From assembly GCA_001820655.1 (NCBI GenBank), contig MHQM01000025.1, forward strand, positions 1-30,570: a stretch of 30,570 bases of DNA, written 5' to 3'. Position 1 is the first letter of the stretch; every line of letters starts with the position of its first letter. This document shows positions 5,867-30,570 of the stretch, one piece after another. The notes below the pieces were generated by a model that did no database searches, was not told the origin of the DNA, and saw nothing but the letters and a program-made list of their open reading frames with translations. The position numbers were made by a program, and so were the translations under genes. This stretch comes from Candidatus Sungbacteria bacterium RIFCSPHIGHO2_02_FULL_52_23 (lineage in GTDB: Bacteria; Patescibacteriota; Minisyncoccia; Sungbacterales; HO2-52-23).

Positions 5867-6065
5867 AGACCTACTGATTAAATATTATTCACCTCCGATG
5901 TCCAGATTTCGGAGACGGGGCATCCCGCTATGCGGGAACGCTTCGCGTCTGTACTACGACTTTGCAAAAATTACTCAACATATACGCCGTATATGTCTCA
6001 TAATTTTTGCAACACTCGCACGAAATCTGAACATCTCGTAACGAAACTATTTAATCAGTAGGTCT
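5867..6065. mobile_element. MITE-like palindromic element, copy 1 (with a nested 40-bp insert)
   Basis: 18-bp TIR AGACCTACTGATTAAATA (5867-5884 / 6048-6065) flanked by ACC on both sides. The body aligns to the reverse complement of copy 2. Confidence 0.8.
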
Positions 6066-6097
6066 ACCGTTTTAATATGCGACACGAAGCCCAAACG

Positions 6098-7148: not shown

Positions 7149-8420
7149 TTATAGCTCCTTTAAGATGCGTTCAAAAGGAGCGCGATCGCGGGCGGGCCCT
7201 ATCATAGCAAGATTGAGAGCCTCGGGACGGATCATCTCGCGCGATACCGCCAGGATATCTTCAGGCGTCACTGCGTCAATCTTCGCAAACACTTCATCAA
7301 TCGTCTGGGGCTTGCCTGTCAGCATCTCTTCTCCCCCGATGAAATTTGCCACCGCATTAGACTGCTCAAGGCCGATCAATGTCGTGCCACGCATATAGTC
7401 TTTGACGCGCTTGAGCTCGGCCGCCGAAACCGGCTCCACAGTCATGCGTTTATATTCCTCCAGAGCCGCACGGATCGTCTTTTCCACATTGGCGTGATCC
7501 ACGCCAGCATACGTCACCAGATACCCGCGATTTGAGTATGACTCGTGTGCTGTCATCACGGTGTATGCCAGGCCAAGTTTGTCGCGGATGCGATCCCACA
7601 TGCGGGCGCTCCACGATCCTCCGAGCAAAGCCGCGAGCACTTCTGCGATATAGCGTTTCGGATGATTCGCGTCATATCCACGGAATCCGAGCGTGATATG
7701 CGTCTGATCGGTCTCTTTGTACTCAAGGTCAAGCCCGATGCCGTTTTGCGTATCGCGTACCGCGGGCTTGGTCCGCATGGGCGAGGCCGATCGCAGATCG
7801 CCGAAAAGCTCGCGCGCACGGGCAACCGTAGCGTCCTGGTCAAAATTGCCCGCGATCACGATCGCGGTGTTGGACGCGACATACTGGTGCGTGAAGTAAT
7901 TGGCAAAATCATCGCGCGAAAGCGCGCGGATCACTTTTTCCTCGCCGATGACGTCCCATCCGGCCGGCTGGTCTCCGTACAGGAGCCGCTCCCACACCCA
8001 CCAGACGAAGAGAGTTGGCGTGTCGCGGTCTTTGTGCATCTCCTCTATGATCACCTGCCGCTCGCGATTGATTTCTTCCTCCGCCAAAAGAGAGTTTTTG
8101 TAGATATCGGCGAGCAGGTCAAGCGACTGGTCAAGGTATGTTTTCGCGGCCTTGATGTGATAGCCCGTGATTTCATGGCTCGTAAACGCATTGGAGATAG
8201 ACCCCATGCCGTCAAGCTCGTGTTTGATTTCGTCGGGCGTAGGGCGATTCTTCGTGCCCTTGAAAAACATGTGCTCCAAAAAATGCGAGATGCCTCCAAT
8301 CTCCCGCGCCTCATAGTCAGACCCCGTGCCACAAAGCACCAGTACCGTCACGGTATTGGTCCCCACCATGGGGGCCGTAATAATCCGCAATCCGCTTTCT
8401 AATGTAGTTTTTTTAAACAT
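7149..8420 (-). CDS. M16-family zinc peptidase (pitrilysin-like)
   Basis: HFLEH inverted zincin motif, NAFTS, GLAY. Start placed at MFKKTTLESGL (8420). Confidence 0.92.
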   Translation of the reverse strand: MFKKTTLESGLRIITAPMVGTNTVTVLVLCGTGSDYEAREIGGISHFLEHMFFKGTKNRPTPDEIKHELDGMGSISNAFTSHEITGYHIKAAKTYLDQSLDLLADIYKNSLLAEEEINRERQVIIEEMHKDRDTPTLFVWWVWERLLYGDQPAGWDVIGEEKVIRALSRDDFANYFTHQYVASNTAIVIAGNFDQDATVARARELFGDLRSASPMRTKPAVRDTQNGIGLDLEYKETDQTHITLGFRGYDANHPKRYIAEVLAALLGGSWSARMWDRIRDKLGLAYTVMTAHESYSNRGYLVTYAGVDHANVEKTIRAALEEYKRMTVEPVSAAELKRVKDYMRGTTLIGLEQSNAVANFIGGEEMLTGKPQTIDEVFAKIDAVTPEDILAVSREMIRPEALNLAMIGPARDRAPFERILKEL

Positions 8421-8759: not shown

Positions 8760-11327
8760 GTGGACAACGCGAATAAGCCCAGTACCAAATCCTTGGTCAA
8801 CACGACTCGCATCAGCGATCACTTTGGGGTAACTCCCGGGCAGGTCACGCGCGTATTCTCTTTTGGCATAATACCGACAAAGAGACAATACGCCATTATA
8901 GAACGGTGGTTTGCCGCGGTAGAGGCCGCGCGTGAGCGACTCTATGGAATGCTCTATGCGCATTTCCAAGAAAATCCCCCTGCCTACCTGAAAGAAAAAT
9001 TTTCGTACGAGACATTTTTCAAAGGCAGACCCGTACTTAACGGCCTCCGTGATATTGATCCCACGATCATGACATCTGCCGTTTTTACGGCACTACGGCA
9101 CAAGGCCGAAGGCGCGATGGCCGCATTCCACACCAACCACCGACGGCTTTTTGAGGAAGCCCGGAAGAAAATGCGGGAATACGCCGAATGCCTGAAGGCC
9201 AATGAGGCATTGCTCCGGGGTGCGGCGGACATAGATTGGGACAAAATTGTCAACGCCCTGCGTACCCGCCTCAATACCTGTCTGGCACCCGAGTACGATG
9301 CGGTGATTGCGGATTTTGGCGCACTGTGCGCATTCCGGGCGCTCATTGCAGAAACAAACGCTCTAAAAGGCGCGTACAACCACGCGCTCAATCAGATGCT
9401 TCCCGCTCTTGTGAAAGTGGATGAGCCGGAAGAAGCCGAGGAGTCGCCCCGTCTCCGATTCTTCAATGGGCGGATCAACGACCTTCCGAAATTTCCCGTT
9501 GCCGAGCGCGAGACGCCGCCGGATACCGAGACGATCATCCGGCAACTGGAAGATATGGCGCGGGTCATACCGGACACTGCCGAAATCCTCGGCTATATCC
9601 ATCGCATAAGGCATAAAGCCGCGCGCCGGAAGCCCGGAAGCGCCGTACCGCTACCCCAACGCGTCGCTCTCTACTGTGCGATCCGCATGGAAAGGAATCC
9701 CGAAGAAGATCCGTCAACGGTCGCCGGGCATTTCCTCGGCGAAATTGATCGGGTATGCGAAAAGCGCCGTCAAGGACTTGTCCGCACGCCTTTTGACAGC
9801 CAGATCAGGGCAAGATACATGGATATCATCTCTTTTCGCGCGACGCTCGCGCATCCTGACCGGTGGACCGAGATCCAGTTCCTCCGGAGCAATGCGGCAA
9901 GCAGAAGAGTACGCGCCGAGACAATATCGGCCCCGTTTGAAGGGTTTTCATGGACGAGCAACCGGACAAATCCCGCGCCTCAGTACGGCATGGCGCTTGC
10001 CAAAGACGCTAATGCTCCGGCCGATGCCCCGGAGTTGTGTATCTGTCTTTCTCCATCATCTGCCGCATTCTCTGTCAGAGAAAAAGGAGGAGATTTGATC
10101 TATATGAGACCGACCGGCGGCAGACGAGGCAAAGACAATCCGGGCAAAGAGATCACCTGGGTACCCGGATCTTTTGACGAGTACCCCGCATCCGGTGTAG
10201 CACTGAAACTCCGCCTTTATTTCGGCAGATCACAGGCGCGCAGAATGCTCACCAATAAAACGTGGGGCCTCTTGTCGGATAATCCGCGCGTATTCGCCGC
10301 CAACGCCGAGCTGGTGGGAAAAAAAAGAAATCCCCAAGACCGGTGGAAGTTATTCTTCCATATGGTAATCAGCGGACCTCCTCCGGTGGAGTATCTGGAT
10401 TTCTCCTCCGATGTGCGTTCCCGGGCCCGAACCGTCATCGGGATAAACCGCGGCGAGGTCAATCCGCTTGCCTATGCCGTGGTGTCTGTAGAGGATGGCC
10501 AAGTGCTTGAGGAGGGTCTTCTCGGCAAAAAAGAGTACATAGACCAGTTGATAGAGACCAGACGCCGGATCAGCGAGTACCAATCCCGCGAACAAACCCC
10601 GCCCCGCGATTTACGCCAGAGGGTCCGGCATCTGCAGGATACGGTTTTGGGAAGCGCCCGGGCAAAGATCCATTCGCTGATCGCATTCTGGAAGGGTATC
10701 CTCGCGATAGAACGGCTGGATGACCAGTTCCATGGCAGGGAGCAAAAGATTATTCCCAAAAAGACCTACCTTGCCAATAAAACGGGCTTTATGAACGCGT
10801 TGAGTTTTTCCGGCGCGGTCCGCGTTGACAAAAAAGGCAACCCATGGGGAGGTATGATAGAGATTTATCCGGGCGGCATTTCCCGCACCTGCACACAGTG
10901 CGGAACCGTCTGGCTTGCGAGGCGACCGAAAAATCCCGGACACCGCGACGCCATGGTGGTCATTCCCGATATCGTGGATGATGCGGCCGCAACGGGGTTT
11001 GACAACGTGGATTGCGATGCAGGCACTGTGGATTACGGGGAACTTTTTACGCTCAGTAGAGAGTGGGTCCGGCTGACTCCGCGTTATAGTCGCGTCATGC
11101 GGGGGACATTGGGAGACCTTGAACGGGCGATCCGGCAAGGAGATGATCGCAAGAGCAGACAAATGCTCGAGCTTGCGCTTGAGCCGCAACCGCAATGGGG
11201 GCAGTTTTTTTGCCACCGATGCGGATTCAACGGACAGTCCGACGTGCTGGCCGCGACCAATCTGGCGCGGCGCGCCATATCTTTGATCAGGCGCCTGCCG
11301 GATACTGATACTCCCCCAACCCCTTGA
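8760..11327 (+). CDS. Type V CRISPR effector, CasX/Cas12e-like, 855 aa, RuvC-I D>N (probably nuclease-dead)
   Basis: C-terminal split RuvC: VIGINRGEVNP (N563; CasX has IG(V/I)DRGENIP), LAIERL (E651), SRTCTQCG...FFCHRCG Zn fingers, QSDVLAATNLARR (D828). A CRISPR array lies 213 bp downstream. Confidence 0.88.
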   Translation: MDNANKPSTKSLVNTTRISDHFGVTPGQVTRVFSFGIIPTKRQYAIIERWFAAVEAARERLYGMLYAHFQENPPAYLKEKFSYETFFKGRPVLNGLRDIDPTIMTSAVFTALRHKAEGAMAAFHTNHRRLFEEARKKMREYAECLKANEALLRGAADIDWDKIVNALRTRLNTCLAPEYDAVIADFGALCAFRALIAETNALKGAYNHALNQMLPALVKVDEPEEAEESPRLRFFNGRINDLPKFPVAERETPPDTETIIRQLEDMARVIPDTAEILGYIHRIRHKAARRKPGSAVPLPQRVALYCAIRMERNPEEDPSTVAGHFLGEIDRVCEKRRQGLVRTPFDSQIRARYMDIISFRATLAHPDRWTEIQFLRSNAASRRVRAETISAPFEGFSWTSNRTNPAPQYGMALAKDANAPADAPELCICLSPSSAAFSVREKGGDLIYMRPTGGRRGKDNPGKEITWVPGSFDEYPASGVALKLRLYFGRSQARRMLTNKTWGLLSDNPRVFAANAELVGKKRNPQDRWKLFFHMVISGPPPVEYLDFSSDVRSRARTVIGINRGEVNPLAYAVVSVEDGQVLEEGLLGKKEYIDQLIETRRRISEYQSREQTPPRDLRQRVRHLQDTVLGSARAKIHSLIAFWKGILAIERLDDQFHGREQKIIPKKTYLANKTGFMNALSFSGAVRVDKKGNPWGGMIEIYPGGISRTCTQCGTVWLARRPKNPGHRDAMVVIPDIVDDAAATGFDNVDCDAGTVDYGELFTLSREWVRLTPRYSRVMRGTLGDLERAIRQGDDRKSRQMLELALEPQPQWGQFFCHRCGFNGQSDVLAATNLARRAISLIRRLPDTDTPPTP

Positions 11328-11352
11328 CAAGATAGCGGGATTAAGCTATCTT
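11324..11352 (+). promoter_or_regulatory. Promoter overlapping the cas12 stop codon, containing an inverted repeat
   Basis: TTGACA (11324-11329), N17, TATCTT (11347-11352). The inverted repeat AAGATAGC/GCTATCTT (11329-11336 / 11345-11352) overlaps both boxes. Confidence 0.65.
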
Positions 11353-11358
11353 CTTCCC

Positions 11359-11515
11359 CAAGCTCCTTATATAAGTAGTATCCATATAGAGGGGCCCATT
11401 GGCCGCTTTAAAATCGTTTCAACGGCCAATCCCCCGACCGGATTACCGGTCGGGTATAAAAGCTTCCTCTCATGAAAAGAGCCCTGTCTTCCTCGCGGAG
11501 ATAGGGCTCAAAAAA
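11359..11515 (+). ncRNA. Candidate tracr/scout-like RNA
   Basis: Non-coding stretch between effector and array with three hairpins (11398-11430, 8 bp; 11433-11454, 9 bp perfect; 11479-11509, 13 bp with 2 G-U) and short repeat-complementary segments. Boundaries and strand are inferred. Confidence 0.5.
11479..11509 (-). terminator. Possible intrinsic terminator for minus-strand transcription
   Basis: 13-bp stem followed on the minus strand by TTTT. On the plus strand it is followed by an A-run, so it is not a plus-strand terminator. Confidence 0.4.
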
Positions 11516-11540
11516 TTTAATGCTTGATGATCATATTCTC

Positions 11541-11764
11541 GTTTACACACTCCCTCTCATAGGGTGGCTCTTAGACGGGGCTGCTCATTACGGCTGTTGG
11601 GTTTACACACTCCCTCTCATGAGGTAACTCTTGGACTAGGCGTATCCAAGGCAACCTCGCATGTTTTTACATACCCCCTCTCATGGGATGGCTCTTAGAC
11701 GACCTCTTGGCTTCGGGGAACCTCCTGTTTACACACTCCCTCTCATGGGGGATGGCTCTTAGAC
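11541..11764. CRISPR. Degenerate CRISPR mini-array: 4 repeats (36, 36, 36, 38 nt), 3 spacers (24, 28, 26 nt)
   Basis: R1 11541-11576 GTTTACACACTCCCTCTCATAGGGTGGCTCTTAGAC; R2 11601-11636; R3 11665-11700; R4 11727-11764. Spacers 11577-11600, 11637-11664, 11701-11726. Orientation not resolved. Confidence 0.92.
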
Positions 11765-11893
11765 AGCGCCTTGAGCCTATCAAAGAGCTTTTGGGAATGT
11801 AGCGCAAAAGAATATTGAGCGCAAGAGACGCATAAAGACCAACATTTCCAGAAAGTTGGCAACGCAATGATTTATAAATCCAAATCTGCACGG

Positions 11894-13249
11894 CTATTGC
11901 GTAGCGTTTGAGATTGATCCCTTTCTTTTTTCTGCTAAAAACCTGGCCAATGCCGGCACAGCTATGCGCTCCTGTTTTGCCGTATCGCGATCGCGGACGG
12001 TTACAGTGTCGTCTTCCAATGTCTGATAATCCACGGTGATACAGTAGGGCGTGCCGATCTCGTCCTGCGCATAATAACGCTTGCCGATATTGCCGCGCGC
12101 GTCCCATGCGATACTGAATCCCCCTGCTTTGAGTTCCTTGTACACCTCGCCTGCCTTTTCCACGATCTGCGGACGGTTTGATACCAGAGGAAATACTGCG
12201 GCTTTGTAGGGCGCCAGGCGTGGCGGCAGTTTCAGATATACGCGCTTTCCTTTTTCGCTTTCCTCCTCGCGATACGCTTCAAGCAGTACCGCAAGCACTG
12301 TACGATCCACGCCCCATGTCGGCTCAATCACGTGCGGATAAAACGAATCTTCTCCTTCTTCGCGATACGGCGGCTCCTTGAAGTGATTTTTGAGGTCAAA
12401 GTCGCCGCGGTATGCGAGGCCATACAGTTCTTTTTTGCCGAACGGAAAGTCATACTCAAAATCCACCGTGCGTTTGGAGTAGTGCGCGCGCTCCCCGTCC
12501 GGGACTTCCAACTCATGCACACGCTCCATCGCGATCCCCATATCACTGATCCACGCGCGCATTTCGTTGAGCCAGTGCGCAAAATGGTCTTCCCATGATG
12601 CCTCGCGGACAAAATATTCTATCTCCATCTGCTCAAATTCGCGGGAGCGGAAGATAAAGTCGCGCGGGGTGATTTCGTTGCGGAATGCTTTGCCGATCTG
12701 CGCGATACCAAAAGGCAGAGTACGGCGCATGGTGTCCGTGATATTTTTGAAATTCACAAACATCCCCTGTGCGGTCTCGGGGCGCAAGTATGTCTGGCTT
12801 GCCGAATCCTCCACCGGGCCGACAAATGTGCGGAAAAGAAGATTGAAATTCCGCGCTTCGGAAAAATCTGCGCCCTCCGCCGCCCGGCCGTGCTCCCGCG
12901 CGTAATGTCCCGTCCATTCGTCTGTCTGATCGGCGCGAAAACGCTGATGGCATTTTTTGCACTCTACCAGAGGATCGGTAAATTCGCCGACATGGCCCGA
13001 TACTTCCCATACTTTCGGATTCATCACGATTGCAGTATCAATCCCCACCATGTCGTCGCGGGCACGCACAAATCTCCGCCACCACATTTCTTTGATGTTG
13101 TTTTTGAGCTCCACGCCCAAAGGCCCATAGTCCCAGGTACCGGCAAGCCCGCCGTATATCTCGGAAGCGGGAAAGACAAAGCCGCGCCGCTTGGCCAGGC
13201 TCACAATCTTTTCCATTGATACCGATGCATCTTCTGCGGCTTTGCTCAT
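11894..13249 (-). CDS. glyQS: Glycyl-tRNA synthetase, alpha2 (homodimeric) type
   Basis: KRRGFVFPASEIYGG, YLRPETAQG, FRNEITPRDFIFRSREFEQMEIE, HVIEPTWGVDR, DEIGTPYCITVD. Confidence 0.96.
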   Translation of the reverse strand: MSKAAEDASVSMEKIVSLAKRRGFVFPASEIYGGLAGTWDYGPLGVELKNNIKEMWWRRFVRARDDMVGIDTAIVMNPKVWEVSGHVGEFTDPLVECKKCHQRFRADQTDEWTGHYAREHGRAAEGADFSEARNFNLLFRTFVGPVEDSASQTYLRPETAQGMFVNFKNITDTMRRTLPFGIAQIGKAFRNEITPRDFIFRSREFEQMEIEYFVREASWEDHFAHWLNEMRAWISDMGIAMERVHELEVPDGERAHYSKRTVDFEYDFPFGKKELYGLAYRGDFDLKNHFKEPPYREEGEDSFYPHVIEPTWGVDRTVLAVLLEAYREEESEKGKRVYLKLPPRLAPYKAAVFPLVSNRPQIVEKAGEVYKELKAGGFSIAWDARGNIGKRYYAQDEIGTPYCITVDYQTLEDDTVTVRDRDTAKQERIAVPALARFLAEKRKGSISNATQ

Positions 13250-19463: not shown

Positions 19464-19519
19464 ATGATCTATGCTACAGTATTAGGCCTAACTTCTCAAA
19501 AATCAAGAAATGATTTCTA

Positions 19520-19556
19520 TCAACAAAAAATAGACGATCGTCTATTTTTTTGTTGA
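19520..19556. promoter_or_regulatory. Long palindrome (operator-like or element end), upstream of ileS
   Basis: TCAACAAAAAATAGACGATCGTCTATTTTTTTGTTGA; the core 19525-19550 is a perfect 26-bp palindrome. Confidence 0.7.
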
Positions 19557-20103: not shown

Positions 20104-20129
20104 ATCTCCATCATACTTTAAAATCTATA

Positions 20130-20165
20130 TCAACAAAAGATAGACGATCGTCAATAAATTGTTGA
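20130..20165. promoter_or_regulatory. Second, imperfect copy of the palindrome, upstream of the PaaX-like gene
   Basis: TCAACAAAAGATAGACGATCGTCAATAAATTGTTGA, sharing the TCAACAAAA, GACGATCGTC and TTGTTGA blocks with 19520-19556. Confidence 0.7.
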
Positions 20166-27236: not shown

Positions 27237-28358
27237 TTATTGCGCGATTCGCACAAGCTCCGCGATGACGCCTGCGATAATCAGGGTATAGATGCCATAG
27301 CTCATCCACGCAGGTATGATGCCGCGGCCATGGTGCTCCTGCCTGATCTTACGCCCCATAAGGAGAAACAGCAGTCCGTCTACGCCAAACGCCATGACAC
27401 CCACGATACTGATGATCGCGATGAAGTTTTGAAATCCGGCAAGGTATAAAAGAAACGGTATGGCAGATGCCGTAAGCCATGCGGCCCGGCGTGGGACAGC
27501 AAGATCAAGCGAGAGCATGGCCTGAAAATTGGCCGAAAGCGCGATAAAAGACGTGAGCACCGCGAGGAACCCTGCCATACTCGCAAAAAGCACGACATTG
27601 CCCCCGACAAGCTGTCCGAGGCCCGCGATCGCATCGGTGCTTGTAGCGCCTCCCGTCACCCCCACGACCGCGTACGCAAAAAAGAAATACAGGACAGCCG
27701 GGATCAAAGAGCCTGCGACAATCGCGGCGCGTACTTTTGCTCTGTCGCGCCCGAGGACGGTTACGAGATCCGGTATGACGGACGCGCCCGAGAGCGCAAA
27801 AAGCAAGACGCCGTATGGCACGAAAAGATTGCTCCAGTGGATGCCCGCAAGACGCAAGGGCGACGCATGGGGTAGTAGCAGAAAAGAGAGTCCCGCAACA
27901 AAAGCGATCTCAAAGACCGTCAGCACTCCATTGATCGCGGCTTCTTTTTTGAGCGGGAAAAACGTCACGAGAGCGACAAAACACGCAAGACCTGACGCGA
28001 GCAAAAAGCCGTCGCCTGCAAGGGCTACCCGCGACACAACCGTCTCCAAAAACACGGAGCCGATGATGAGATACGCCAAAAGCGTGCCGACTGTCCCAAA
28101 AAGTGCTGACGCCCATGACACCAGTGCCGCGCGGCGCCCGAGATGCATGCGGGCGTAGCCCGGCATGCGGTGGAAATGCGGCGTTACAAGCACGATCTCG
28201 CCGTACAGGAGATGCAAGACGAGCATGACGCCCGAAATCACGACAAGCTCTGCCGCCCCGAGCCAAAATCCCGTTTGCGCAAACGAAAAAGGGATGGCAA
28301 ACATCCCCGCTCCGATGATCATCCCCGCAAGCACGAAGACGGCTTTGAAAAAACGCAT
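27237..28358 (-). CDS. Aromatic amino-acid (Trp/Tyr) permease-family transporter
   Basis: N-terminal G.IIGAGMFAIPF, PYGVLLFALSG.S.IP, LTSFIA; about 11 TM segments. Confidence 0.8.
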   Translation of the reverse strand: MRFFKAVFVLAGMIIGAGMFAIPFSFAQTGFWLGAAELVVISGVMLVLHLLYGEIVLVTPHFHRMPGYARMHLGRRAALVSWASALFGTVGTLLAYLIIGSVFLETVVSRVALAGDGFLLASGLACFVALVTFFPLKKEAAINGVLTVFEIAFVAGLSFLLLPHASPLRLAGIHWSNLFVPYGVLLFALSGASVIPDLVTVLGRDRAKVRAAIVAGSLIPAVLYFFFAYAVVGVTGGATSTDAIAGLGQLVGGNVVLFASMAGFLAVLTSFIALSANFQAMLSLDLAVPRRAAWLTASAIPFLLYLAGFQNFIAIISIVGVMAFGVDGLLFLLMGRKIRQEHHGRGIIPAWMSYGIYTLIIAGVIAELVRIAQ

Positions 28359-28359
28359 A

Positions 28360-28518
28360 AGACCTACTGATTAAATAGTTTCGTAGCGAGATGTTCAGAT
28401 TTCGTGCGAGACGAAGCAAAAATTATTCAGCATATACGGTGTATATGTTGAATAATTTTTGCAAAGTCGTAGCCGAAATCTGAACATCGGAGTAGAATAG
28501 TATTTAATCAGTAGGTCT
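28360..28518. mobile_element. MITE-like palindromic element, copy 2 (159 bp)
   Basis: Same 18-bp TIR (28360-28377 / 28501-28518), flanked by ATA on both sides, in opposite orientation to copy 1. Confidence 0.8.
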
Positions 28519-28541
28519 ATAGGTAAAACTGGTACTCCGTC

Positions 28542-30466: not shown

Positions 30467-30477
30467 AGCTAGATATT

Positions 30478-30570
30478 AGACCTACTGCGTAAAGATTGTT
30501 CTGCTGCAATTTCCAGATTTCGGCTACGACTTTGAAAAAATTATTCAACATATACGCCGTATATGCCTCA
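30478..30570. mobile_element. MITE-like element, copy 3 (cut by the window end)
   Basis: AGACCTACTG start followed by CCAGATTTCGGCTACGACTTTG..AAAATTATTCAACATATACGCCGTATATG, colinear with copy 1 but without its 40-bp insert. Confidence 0.75.

Follow-up and report, generated by a model that had tools for sequence, protein, structure and literature searches.

A probable tracrRNA gene of a compact Cas12e (CasX) system in a CPR genome, with a CRISPR mini-array converging on it

How is a CasX relative guided when the RNA encoded beside its gene seems to be devoid of an anti-repeat? This question is raised by a locus of Candidatus Sungbacteria bacterium RIFCSPHIGHO2_02_FULL_52_23, which we analysed within a 30,570-nt stretch of contig MHQM01000025.1 (further referred to as the window). 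Here a plus-strand cas12e (casX) gene (8760-11327, 855 aa), whose product is the presumed protein partner of the adjoining RNA, is followed by the candidate RNA, a CRISPR mini-array and, on the minus strand, glyQS. The mini-array (11541-11764, minus strand) contains four non-identical repeats of 36-38 nt (11541-11576, 11601-11636, 11665-11700 and 11727-11764). An initial annotation, made from the letters alone, had seen in the region 11359-11515 a structured RNA with only short repeat complementarity, resembling the scoutRNAs of Cas12c/Cas12d (described in PMC11127173). Our analysis makes it probable that positions 11360-11509 of the plus strand are instead the tracrRNA of a compact Cas12e system in a CPR genome, and that the array is read on the minus strand, converging on it.

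The structured RNA and its conservation among cas12e loci

The region 11359-11515 is indeed structured and folds far below shuffles. On the plus strand positions 11328-11530 reach -76.2 kcal/mol versus -50.5 ± 4.5 kcal/mol for 200 shuffled sequences (z -5.7), none of which was equal, and all three tandem hairpins of the initial annotation are present (11398-11430, 11434-11453 and 11479-11509). The minus strand of the same region gives a similar score (z -5.85), and since both strands fold equally well, the fold alone cannot choose the strand.

The tracrRNA would be transcribed from a near-consensus promoter overlapping the cas12e stop codon (11324-11352, plus strand), composed of a -35 box TTGACA (11324-11329), which contains that codon, a 17-nt spacer and a -10 box TATCTT (11347-11352). 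In a promoter scan of 11100-12000, TTGACA-17-TATCTT was the sole sigma-70-like site, and the start predicted from it, at about 11359-11361, is also the left boundary drawn by the initial annotation. TTGACA is found inside the last cas12e codons in the related loci L002, L007, L008, L011 and L028 as well. An 8-bp inverted repeat, AGATAGC...GCTATCT (11329-11352), spans the spacer and the -10 box; L002 has a changed version of it.

The putative tracrRNA would be built, in this order, of a stem closing a U3 loop, a scaffold hairpin, GUAUAAAAG, a 13-nt anti-repeat GCUUCCUCUCAUG and a terminal hairpin. These modules are preceded by a lineage-specific 5' extension of ~35 nt (11360-11397), which holds AGAGGGG and is able to fold back on the molecule's own anti-repeat. 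Its identity to L002 is 80%, below the 92% of the flanking genes, and distant homologues are devoid of it, their stem beginning right after the -10 box. Stem 1 (11398-11430, with 11398-11405 paired to 11423-11430) closes a 17-nt loop in which two U3 tracts, at 11407-11409 and 11417-11419, are the strands proposed to enter the triple helix. The AAAC end of the minus-strand repeat finds its complement in GUUU at 11416-11419. Hairpin 2 (11434-11453; CCGACCGG, loop AUUA, CCGGUCGG) takes the position of the scaffold stem. The conserved A-rich motif (11454-11462) stands directly 5' of the anti-repeat (11462-11474), whose partner in a minus-strand crRNA is CAUGAGAGG(G/A)AG(U/C). The terminal hairpin (11479-11509) would be common to both converging transcripts. 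Read on the minus strand (11509-11479) it is followed by UUUUCAU and thus is terminator-like for the array transcript; on the plus strand it is followed by A6U3 and, being without a U tract there, might let the tracr transcript read through into the array.

Relatives of the effector were collected by an exhaustive HMMER search (22-35% identity), after which their contigs were read; a word-index protein search with the window Cas12e returned nothing beyond the protein itself, and protein-alignment scans of metagenomes and of genomes added one locus each. In L002, L007, L008, L009, L010, L011, L012, L013, L016 and L028 the same element stands directly behind the cas12e stop codon on the strand of that gene, and L014 has a related, longer one. 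The layout common to this family begins with a TTGACA-type promoter in or just after the last cas12e codons, followed by a stem whose loop contains two U tracts, a locus-specific short hairpin, G(C/U)AUAAAAG, a variable segment of ~13-28 nt and a terminator of A-tract, hairpin and U-tract. The motif, in the form G(C/U)A(U/C)AAAAG, is present in the window, L002, L007, L008, L011 and L016; L028 has GCAUGAAAG, and the versions of L009 and L013 are looser.

Covariation in homologous loci, a check named by the initial annotation, turned out positive. In an alignment of nine loci the two helices are 91.7% paired versus 65.7% in shuffles, and their covariation score is 0.632 versus 0.195 (0 of 500 shuffles as high), while controls with the partners slid by 1-3 columns pair in 24-50%. 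Changes on both sides were noticed in 9 of 13 pairs (6 of 8 in stem 1, where 92.6% of cells are paired across the nine loci, and 3 of 5 modelled in hairpin 2), and at least six G.U cells in the two helices are compatible with the plus strand only. Hairpin 2 is kept in every homologue with a differing stem sequence, e.g. CUCCG/CGGAG, UCCGAG/CUCGG or CCUUUAAG/CUUAAAGG, and the positions of the U tracts are invariant columns of the alignment. A covariance model of the element (R1) recovers all compact-clade loci and matches, with E 1e-3, a locus on which it was not trained (L029), directly after a cas12e-like gene and with the same layout on inspection.

Conservation is also strong at short distance. 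L002, from a Saccharibacteria MAG, is a 92%-identical relative; this is the identity of its cas12e and glyQS, the latter differing at 84 of 452 third codon positions, while the RNA core (11394-11509) is identical at 115 of 116 positions. By our own arithmetic such conservation has P ~1e-9 if the core changed as fast as third codon positions, and ~7e-4 if the overall rate is taken. The sole core difference lies in the terminal stem and changes G-C to G.U on the plus strand; on the minus strand it would be a C.A mismatch.

These comparisons bear on the possibility that no RNA gene exists here and that the hairpins between cas12e, the array and glyQS serve only as terminators and regulatory palindromes. 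The terminator-like character of the last hairpin on the minus strand and the equal folding of both strands would agree with it, as would an Rfam search of 11200-11900, which gave nothing above threshold and sub-threshold chance matches only. Such a view is hardly credible for an element that has its own promoter, conserved in distant loci, two covarying helices, invariant single-stranded motifs, a nearly unchanged core and complementarity to the repeat wherever the repeat is known.

Polarity of the array

An identical 855-aa protein is encoded by eight further contigs carrying the window locus (from ERZ27254767, ERZ27254754, SRR2090153 and others, groundwater samples), four of them with six repeats and four with four. 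The two extra units are located at the glyQS end, and repeats R4, R5 and R6 are identical, while the repeats on the tracr side all differ. Identical repeats and gain or loss of units at the glyQS end mark it as the leader end. The two array lengths may reflect either recent spacer gain without a detectable cas1 or loss by recombination. In the six-repeat array (L017:5782-6132, also in L019, L020 and L021, corresponding to window 11541-11764) the extra repeats are identical 38-nt sequences.

The comparison with L002 concerns the same two ends. The flank on the glyQS side is 95.3% identical and borders directly on the youngest repeats, touching the last one in each genome; the stretch from the terminal hairpin to the first repeat is unrelated between the two. 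The only spacer common to both loci (23 of 24 nt) is the tracr-proximal one, and all glyQS-side spacers are unique, which is the pattern expected if the tracr side is the old end. Together, as far as sequence comparison can tell, these relations establish that the leader is on the glyQS side and that the array is read on the minus strand towards the tracrRNA.

Transcription of the array would thus start in the glyQS-side leader (11765-11893, minus strand) and converge on the tracrRNA gene. The leader contains the terminator-like hairpin of glyQS (11859-11839, with UCUUUAU behind it) and, as a weak candidate for a promoter, TTGCGC (11824-11819), 17 nt, TACATT (11801-11796), which was read by eye and is below the scan threshold; both are conserved in L002. 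No strong promoter for minus-strand array transcription was found in the scan of 11100-12000. Relative to the arrays of relatives, the array appears to be inverted. Similarity of the repeats does not decide the orientation: plus- and minus-strand versions are about equally similar to the repeats of L028 and L008, and comparison with the L008, L011 and L028 repeats is ambiguous because of a palindromic core and GTTT...AAAC-like ends.

A protospacer search, intended to give the PAM side as an independent indication of the strand, found no exact IMG/VR match for the two newest spacers and no self-targets in the genome. The array of L002 (6786-8366) has ~26 repeats, all different, with one truncated unit near 7777, and they are nearly constant only at GTTT, CCTCTCAT and CTTAGAC. 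In L028 (3413-3925) the repeats are degenerate and adaptation genes are absent.

Pairing of the anti-repeat with minus-strand repeats

Read on the minus strand, each window repeat runs GUCUAAGAG...CAUGAGAGGGAGUGUGUAAAC and is followed by its spacer; on the plus strand its 3' end is ...CUCUUAGAC. The handle before minus-strand spacers would accordingly read ...GAGAGGGAGUGUGUAAAC, and the alternative before plus-strand spacers ...GGCUCUUAGAC. Pairing was evaluated on 29 natural repeat variants. Four are those of the window, and 25 were taken from L002, whose ~26 repeats all differ from one another.

With the minus-strand repeats the anti-repeat forms a contiguous helix of 13 bp, G.U counted, in 23 of the 29 variants, and of at least 9 bp in all. 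The mean duplex energy of the tracr segment 11454-11483 is -23.3 kcal/mol with minus-strand repeats (z -7.6, 0 of 200 shuffles) versus -13.1 kcal/mol with plus-strand repeats (z -2.4, 4 of 200 shuffles). Among the 377 cells of the 13-nt block, 311 are Watson-Crick pairs, 58 are G.U and 8 are transversion mismatches, with no transition (C.A-type) mismatch, and at all seven variable positions of the block the variation goes in the direction that permits wobble pairs. Past the block nearly all cells are mismatched, which gives the helix a sharp end at position 16. At the level of sequence, this restriction to G.U changes over 29 variants shows that RNA-RNA pairing with transcripts of the minus strand has been selected for. 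AAA is present in none of the 29 plus-strand repeats, while 28 of the 29 minus-strand repeats end in AAAC, which has the same place relative to the spacer as AAAG/AAAC in relatives.

In the proposed guide a minus-strand repeat would pair with the anti-repeat through CAUGAGAGGGAGU, and the final 8 nt of the repeat, with the invariant AAAC at their end, would directly precede the spacer. As in solved Cas12e guides, by analogy, this AAA would be sandwiched between the two U3 tracts, giving a triple helix.

The statement of the initial annotation that there is no long anti-repeat holds for plus-strand repeats only, as minus-strand repeats form the 13-bp helix with 11462-11474. The array had been read on the wrong strand, hence the apparent lack of an anti-repeat, GCUUCCUCUCAUG being a sense copy of the plus-strand repeat, and the anomaly of a CasX relative seemingly without this part disappears. 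The same annotation had pointed to the right solution in passing, by noting that CCTCTCATGA (11466-11475), identical to repeat R2, would be an anti-repeat if crRNAs came from the minus strand; with G.U pairs the match extends to 13 nt.

Its two other short matches, AGAGGGG (11388-11394) and AAGAGCC (11477-11483), are likewise located where it had put them. They led to the picture of a scout-like RNA that touches plus-strand crRNAs by two 7-nt patches, AGAGGGG/(U/C)CCCUCU and AAGAGCC/GGCUCUU, in an architecture unlike CasX. Plus-strand transcription of the array by read-through would be possible past a hairpin without a U tract, and the plus-strand duplexes are, as given above, mildly better than shuffles. 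[quoted passage not shown] AAGAGCC reaches 7 bp with no more than 5 of 29 repeats; most of it belongs to the terminal, terminator-like stem, and the part of the repeat opposite to it is variable. No plus-strand repeat has the AAA that a Cas12e triple helix requires, the effector is a Cas12e and not a Cas12c or Cas12d, and the RNA is homologous to tracrRNAs with anti-repeats of 13-28 nt, all of which makes the scout-like picture very unlikely. What stands of it is a structured guide-partner RNA associated with the effector, in our reading a tracrRNA; the scout-like nature does not agree with a Cas12e effector and a 13-bp helix.

Co-folding with each repeat orientation, also proposed by the initial annotation, gave a divided result. 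The segment duplexes favour the minus strand, whereas RNAcofold of the whole tracrRNA with one crRNA does not discriminate between the two orientations (gains of -10.8 versus -10.4 kcal/mol), because the 5' extension masks the anti-repeat. An RNAduplex scan of the window with the whole repeat did not single out the spacer region, equally strong chance duplexes being given by GC-rich coding regions.

Complementarity of the anti-repeat is present in every locus with a known repeat. The complete locus L011 (cas12e, RNA, cas4-cas1-cas2 and an array of identical repeats) has a segment, UAUCUAUUUAGAAAAGG, that is a perfect complement to 17 nt of the repeat, which goes on with GACACUAAAAC before the spacer; its tail CUAAAAC is complementary to GUUUUAG of the tracr loop. 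In L028, which consists of cas12e, RNA and array without adaptation genes, the anti-repeat has 17 nt with one mismatch, and the repeat tail is AGCACUAAAAC. The anti-repeat of L008 is 17 nt with one mismatch, that of L007 13 nt, and those of L013, L014 and L009 are 14-28 nt; in these five loci complementarity was determined to a partial first repeat at the contig end.

In the canonical CasX-type locus L025 the protein has 973 aa, the repeat ends in ATCAAAG, and CUUUGAUA faces the repeat tail UAUCAAAG. The anti-repeat of this locus has only ~9 nt and comes after GGGAAAG, in the place of the AAAAG motif, so a short anti-repeat is normal for CasX. R1 did not reach this locus in the covariance search, the sequence similarity being too low, and the tie to the experimentally studied tracrRNAs is therefore one of shared layout and of motifs read by eye. 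The claim of an architecture unlike CasX has to be abandoned, as the layout is that of 10 other cas12e loci, with two U3 tracts and A3, and the helix is not shorter than that of L025.

The relatives also speak to another explanation, in which the RNA is a tracrRNA relic, or a natural single guide that lets a nuclease-impaired Cas12e act as a regulator on repeat DNA or a fixed site without crRNA. The ~20-nt segment after AAAAG, followed by a terminator, is guide-like, and the 3' segment of the RNA is a sense copy of the repeat. The effector has an Asn in RuvC-I, adaptation genes are missing and the repeats are all degenerate. We find this explanation unlikely, however, since the corresponding segment is a plain anti-repeat in every relative, no other genomic site matches the segment beyond chance matches of 14-15 nt, the variation of the 29 repeats is of the G.U-only kind, and units have recently been gained or lost in the array. 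One concrete form of it, a complete single guide with a fixed 20-nt guide in which AAAAG acts as the CasX repeat 3' end, was rejected: the crRNAs of L011 and L028 bring their own ...CUAAAAC tail, and the guide has no genomic target.

The 5' extension (11360-11397) deserves separate mention. The predicted MFE fold pairs 11383-11395 with 11462-11474 and so closes the whole molecule, a pairing that is less good in L002. In this model CAUAUAGAGGGGC, which resembles CAUGAGAGGGAGU, would make the extension a built-in mimic of the crRNA repeat, and the tracrRNA would be self-masked, or similar to a single guide, until the extension is processed or displaced. We regard it as a doubtful proposal of low probability; if true, it would mean a regulated or crRNA-independent state of a nuclease-impaired Cas12e.

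Under the tracrRNA reading the locus would provide a guide design for a compact Cas12e of an ultra-small bacterium, with a ~21-nt handle, a 13-nt anti-repeat and two U3 tracts facing A3. The 29 natural repeats amount to a free mutational scan, in which the 13-nt block and the AAAC end must stay pairable and G.U is tolerated, and such a map of pairability may be useful for engineering compact Cas12e guides.

The effector and known guide systems

The cas12e product matches NF045604, the NCBIfam equivalog of Cas12e/CasX, over its full length with 726 bits (E 5e-218; cut-off 200), as compared to 15 bits with the Cas12c model (cut-off 250), and its nearest solved structure is dVemCas12e (8xyc). In RuvC-I an Asn replaces the catalytic Asp (10440-10442, region of codon 561): the motif is GINRGE, as opposed to G(I/V/L)DRG(E/N) in 12 relatives. 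Alignment with the catalytic residues of these relatives shows that the RuvC-II Glu (IERLD) and the RuvC-III Asp (QSDVLAA) are kept. The enzyme is probably impaired in cleavage. The dual RNA of crRNA and tracrRNA, once processed, would load this effector with its Asp-to-Asn change. No Cas1 was found in the genome assembly, which is 87.7% complete. Weak Cas2-family matches (24 bits) occur at G000:C31:4729-4839 and G000:C34:3899-4015, inside ORFs of 189-200 aa.

Cas12e guides combine one bulged repeat/anti-repeat stem with a triple helix of 3 bp, formed by three repeat adenosines held between two U3 tracts of the tracrRNA, and only two subtypes, Cas12e and Cas12k, have been grouped as having guides with a long repeat/anti-repeat stem plus a triple helix (PMC11246509). 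Among Cas12e orthologues the 3' ends of repeats are conserved, and the OpbCas12e locus is without adaptation genes and has its tracrRNA gene between cas12e and the array (PMC11685505), just as the window locus. Like the tracrRNAs of DpbCas12e, PlmCas12e, VemCas12e and LesCas12e (PMC11685505, PMC11246509), the window RNA adjoins cas12e in a locus with a CRISPR array. With Cas12e tracrRNAs it has in common the two U3 tracts towards the 5' part, the anti-repeat that follows an AAAG-type motif in the 3' part, and a scaffold hairpin separating these two elements; the minus-strand repeat, as in Cas12e, ends with A3 and one base before the spacer, giving a handle of ~21-22 nt (13 paired and 8 in the tail). 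Unlike in known Cas12e loci, the array converges on the tracrRNA gene and does not run in the same direction, the U-tract loop is closed directly by a stem made within the tracrRNA, the repeats end in AAAC rather than AAAG and all differ from one another, the RNA has the ~35-nt 5' extension and the effector has the RuvC-I Asn. For this member of the tracrRNA family, the convergent array, the 5' extension and the hypervariable repeats are the only real peculiarities.

The scoutRNA of Harrington et al. 2020 is reportedly a small structured RNA beside a type V effector, needed together with the crRNA. The window RNA is also small, structured and beside a type V effector, and its complementarity is short on the strand assumed by the initial annotation; it differs in its Cas12e-family effector, in having a 13-bp helix and a proposed triple-helix strand instead of a few paired nucleotides, and in a fold of the Cas12e tracrRNA family. 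Cas12k (type V-K) is naturally nuclease-dead, and in this respect the window effector may be similar; Tn7-like genes are absent from the window locus, however, the profile clearly identifies its effector as a Cas12e, and its RNA is far shorter than that of Cas12k. Some Cas9 tracrRNAs are encoded antisense or convergent to the array, in type II systems, where the duplex has 25-40 bp and a triple helix is absent. The window anti-repeat similarly resembles a repeat copy on the strand opposite to crRNA transcription, yet it belongs to a type V system with a 13-bp helix and a proposed triple helix.

Two further kinds of repeated sequence were noticed elsewhere in the window. A self-complementary, MITE-like element of ~160-200 bp with AGACCTACTG...CAGTAGGTCT ends is present in three copies (5867-6066, 28357-28519 and 30475-30570), and two copies of a 33-nt sequence (19513-19545 and 20123-20155, 88% identical), each with a TAGACGATCGTCTA palindrome, flank an ORF of 181 aa.
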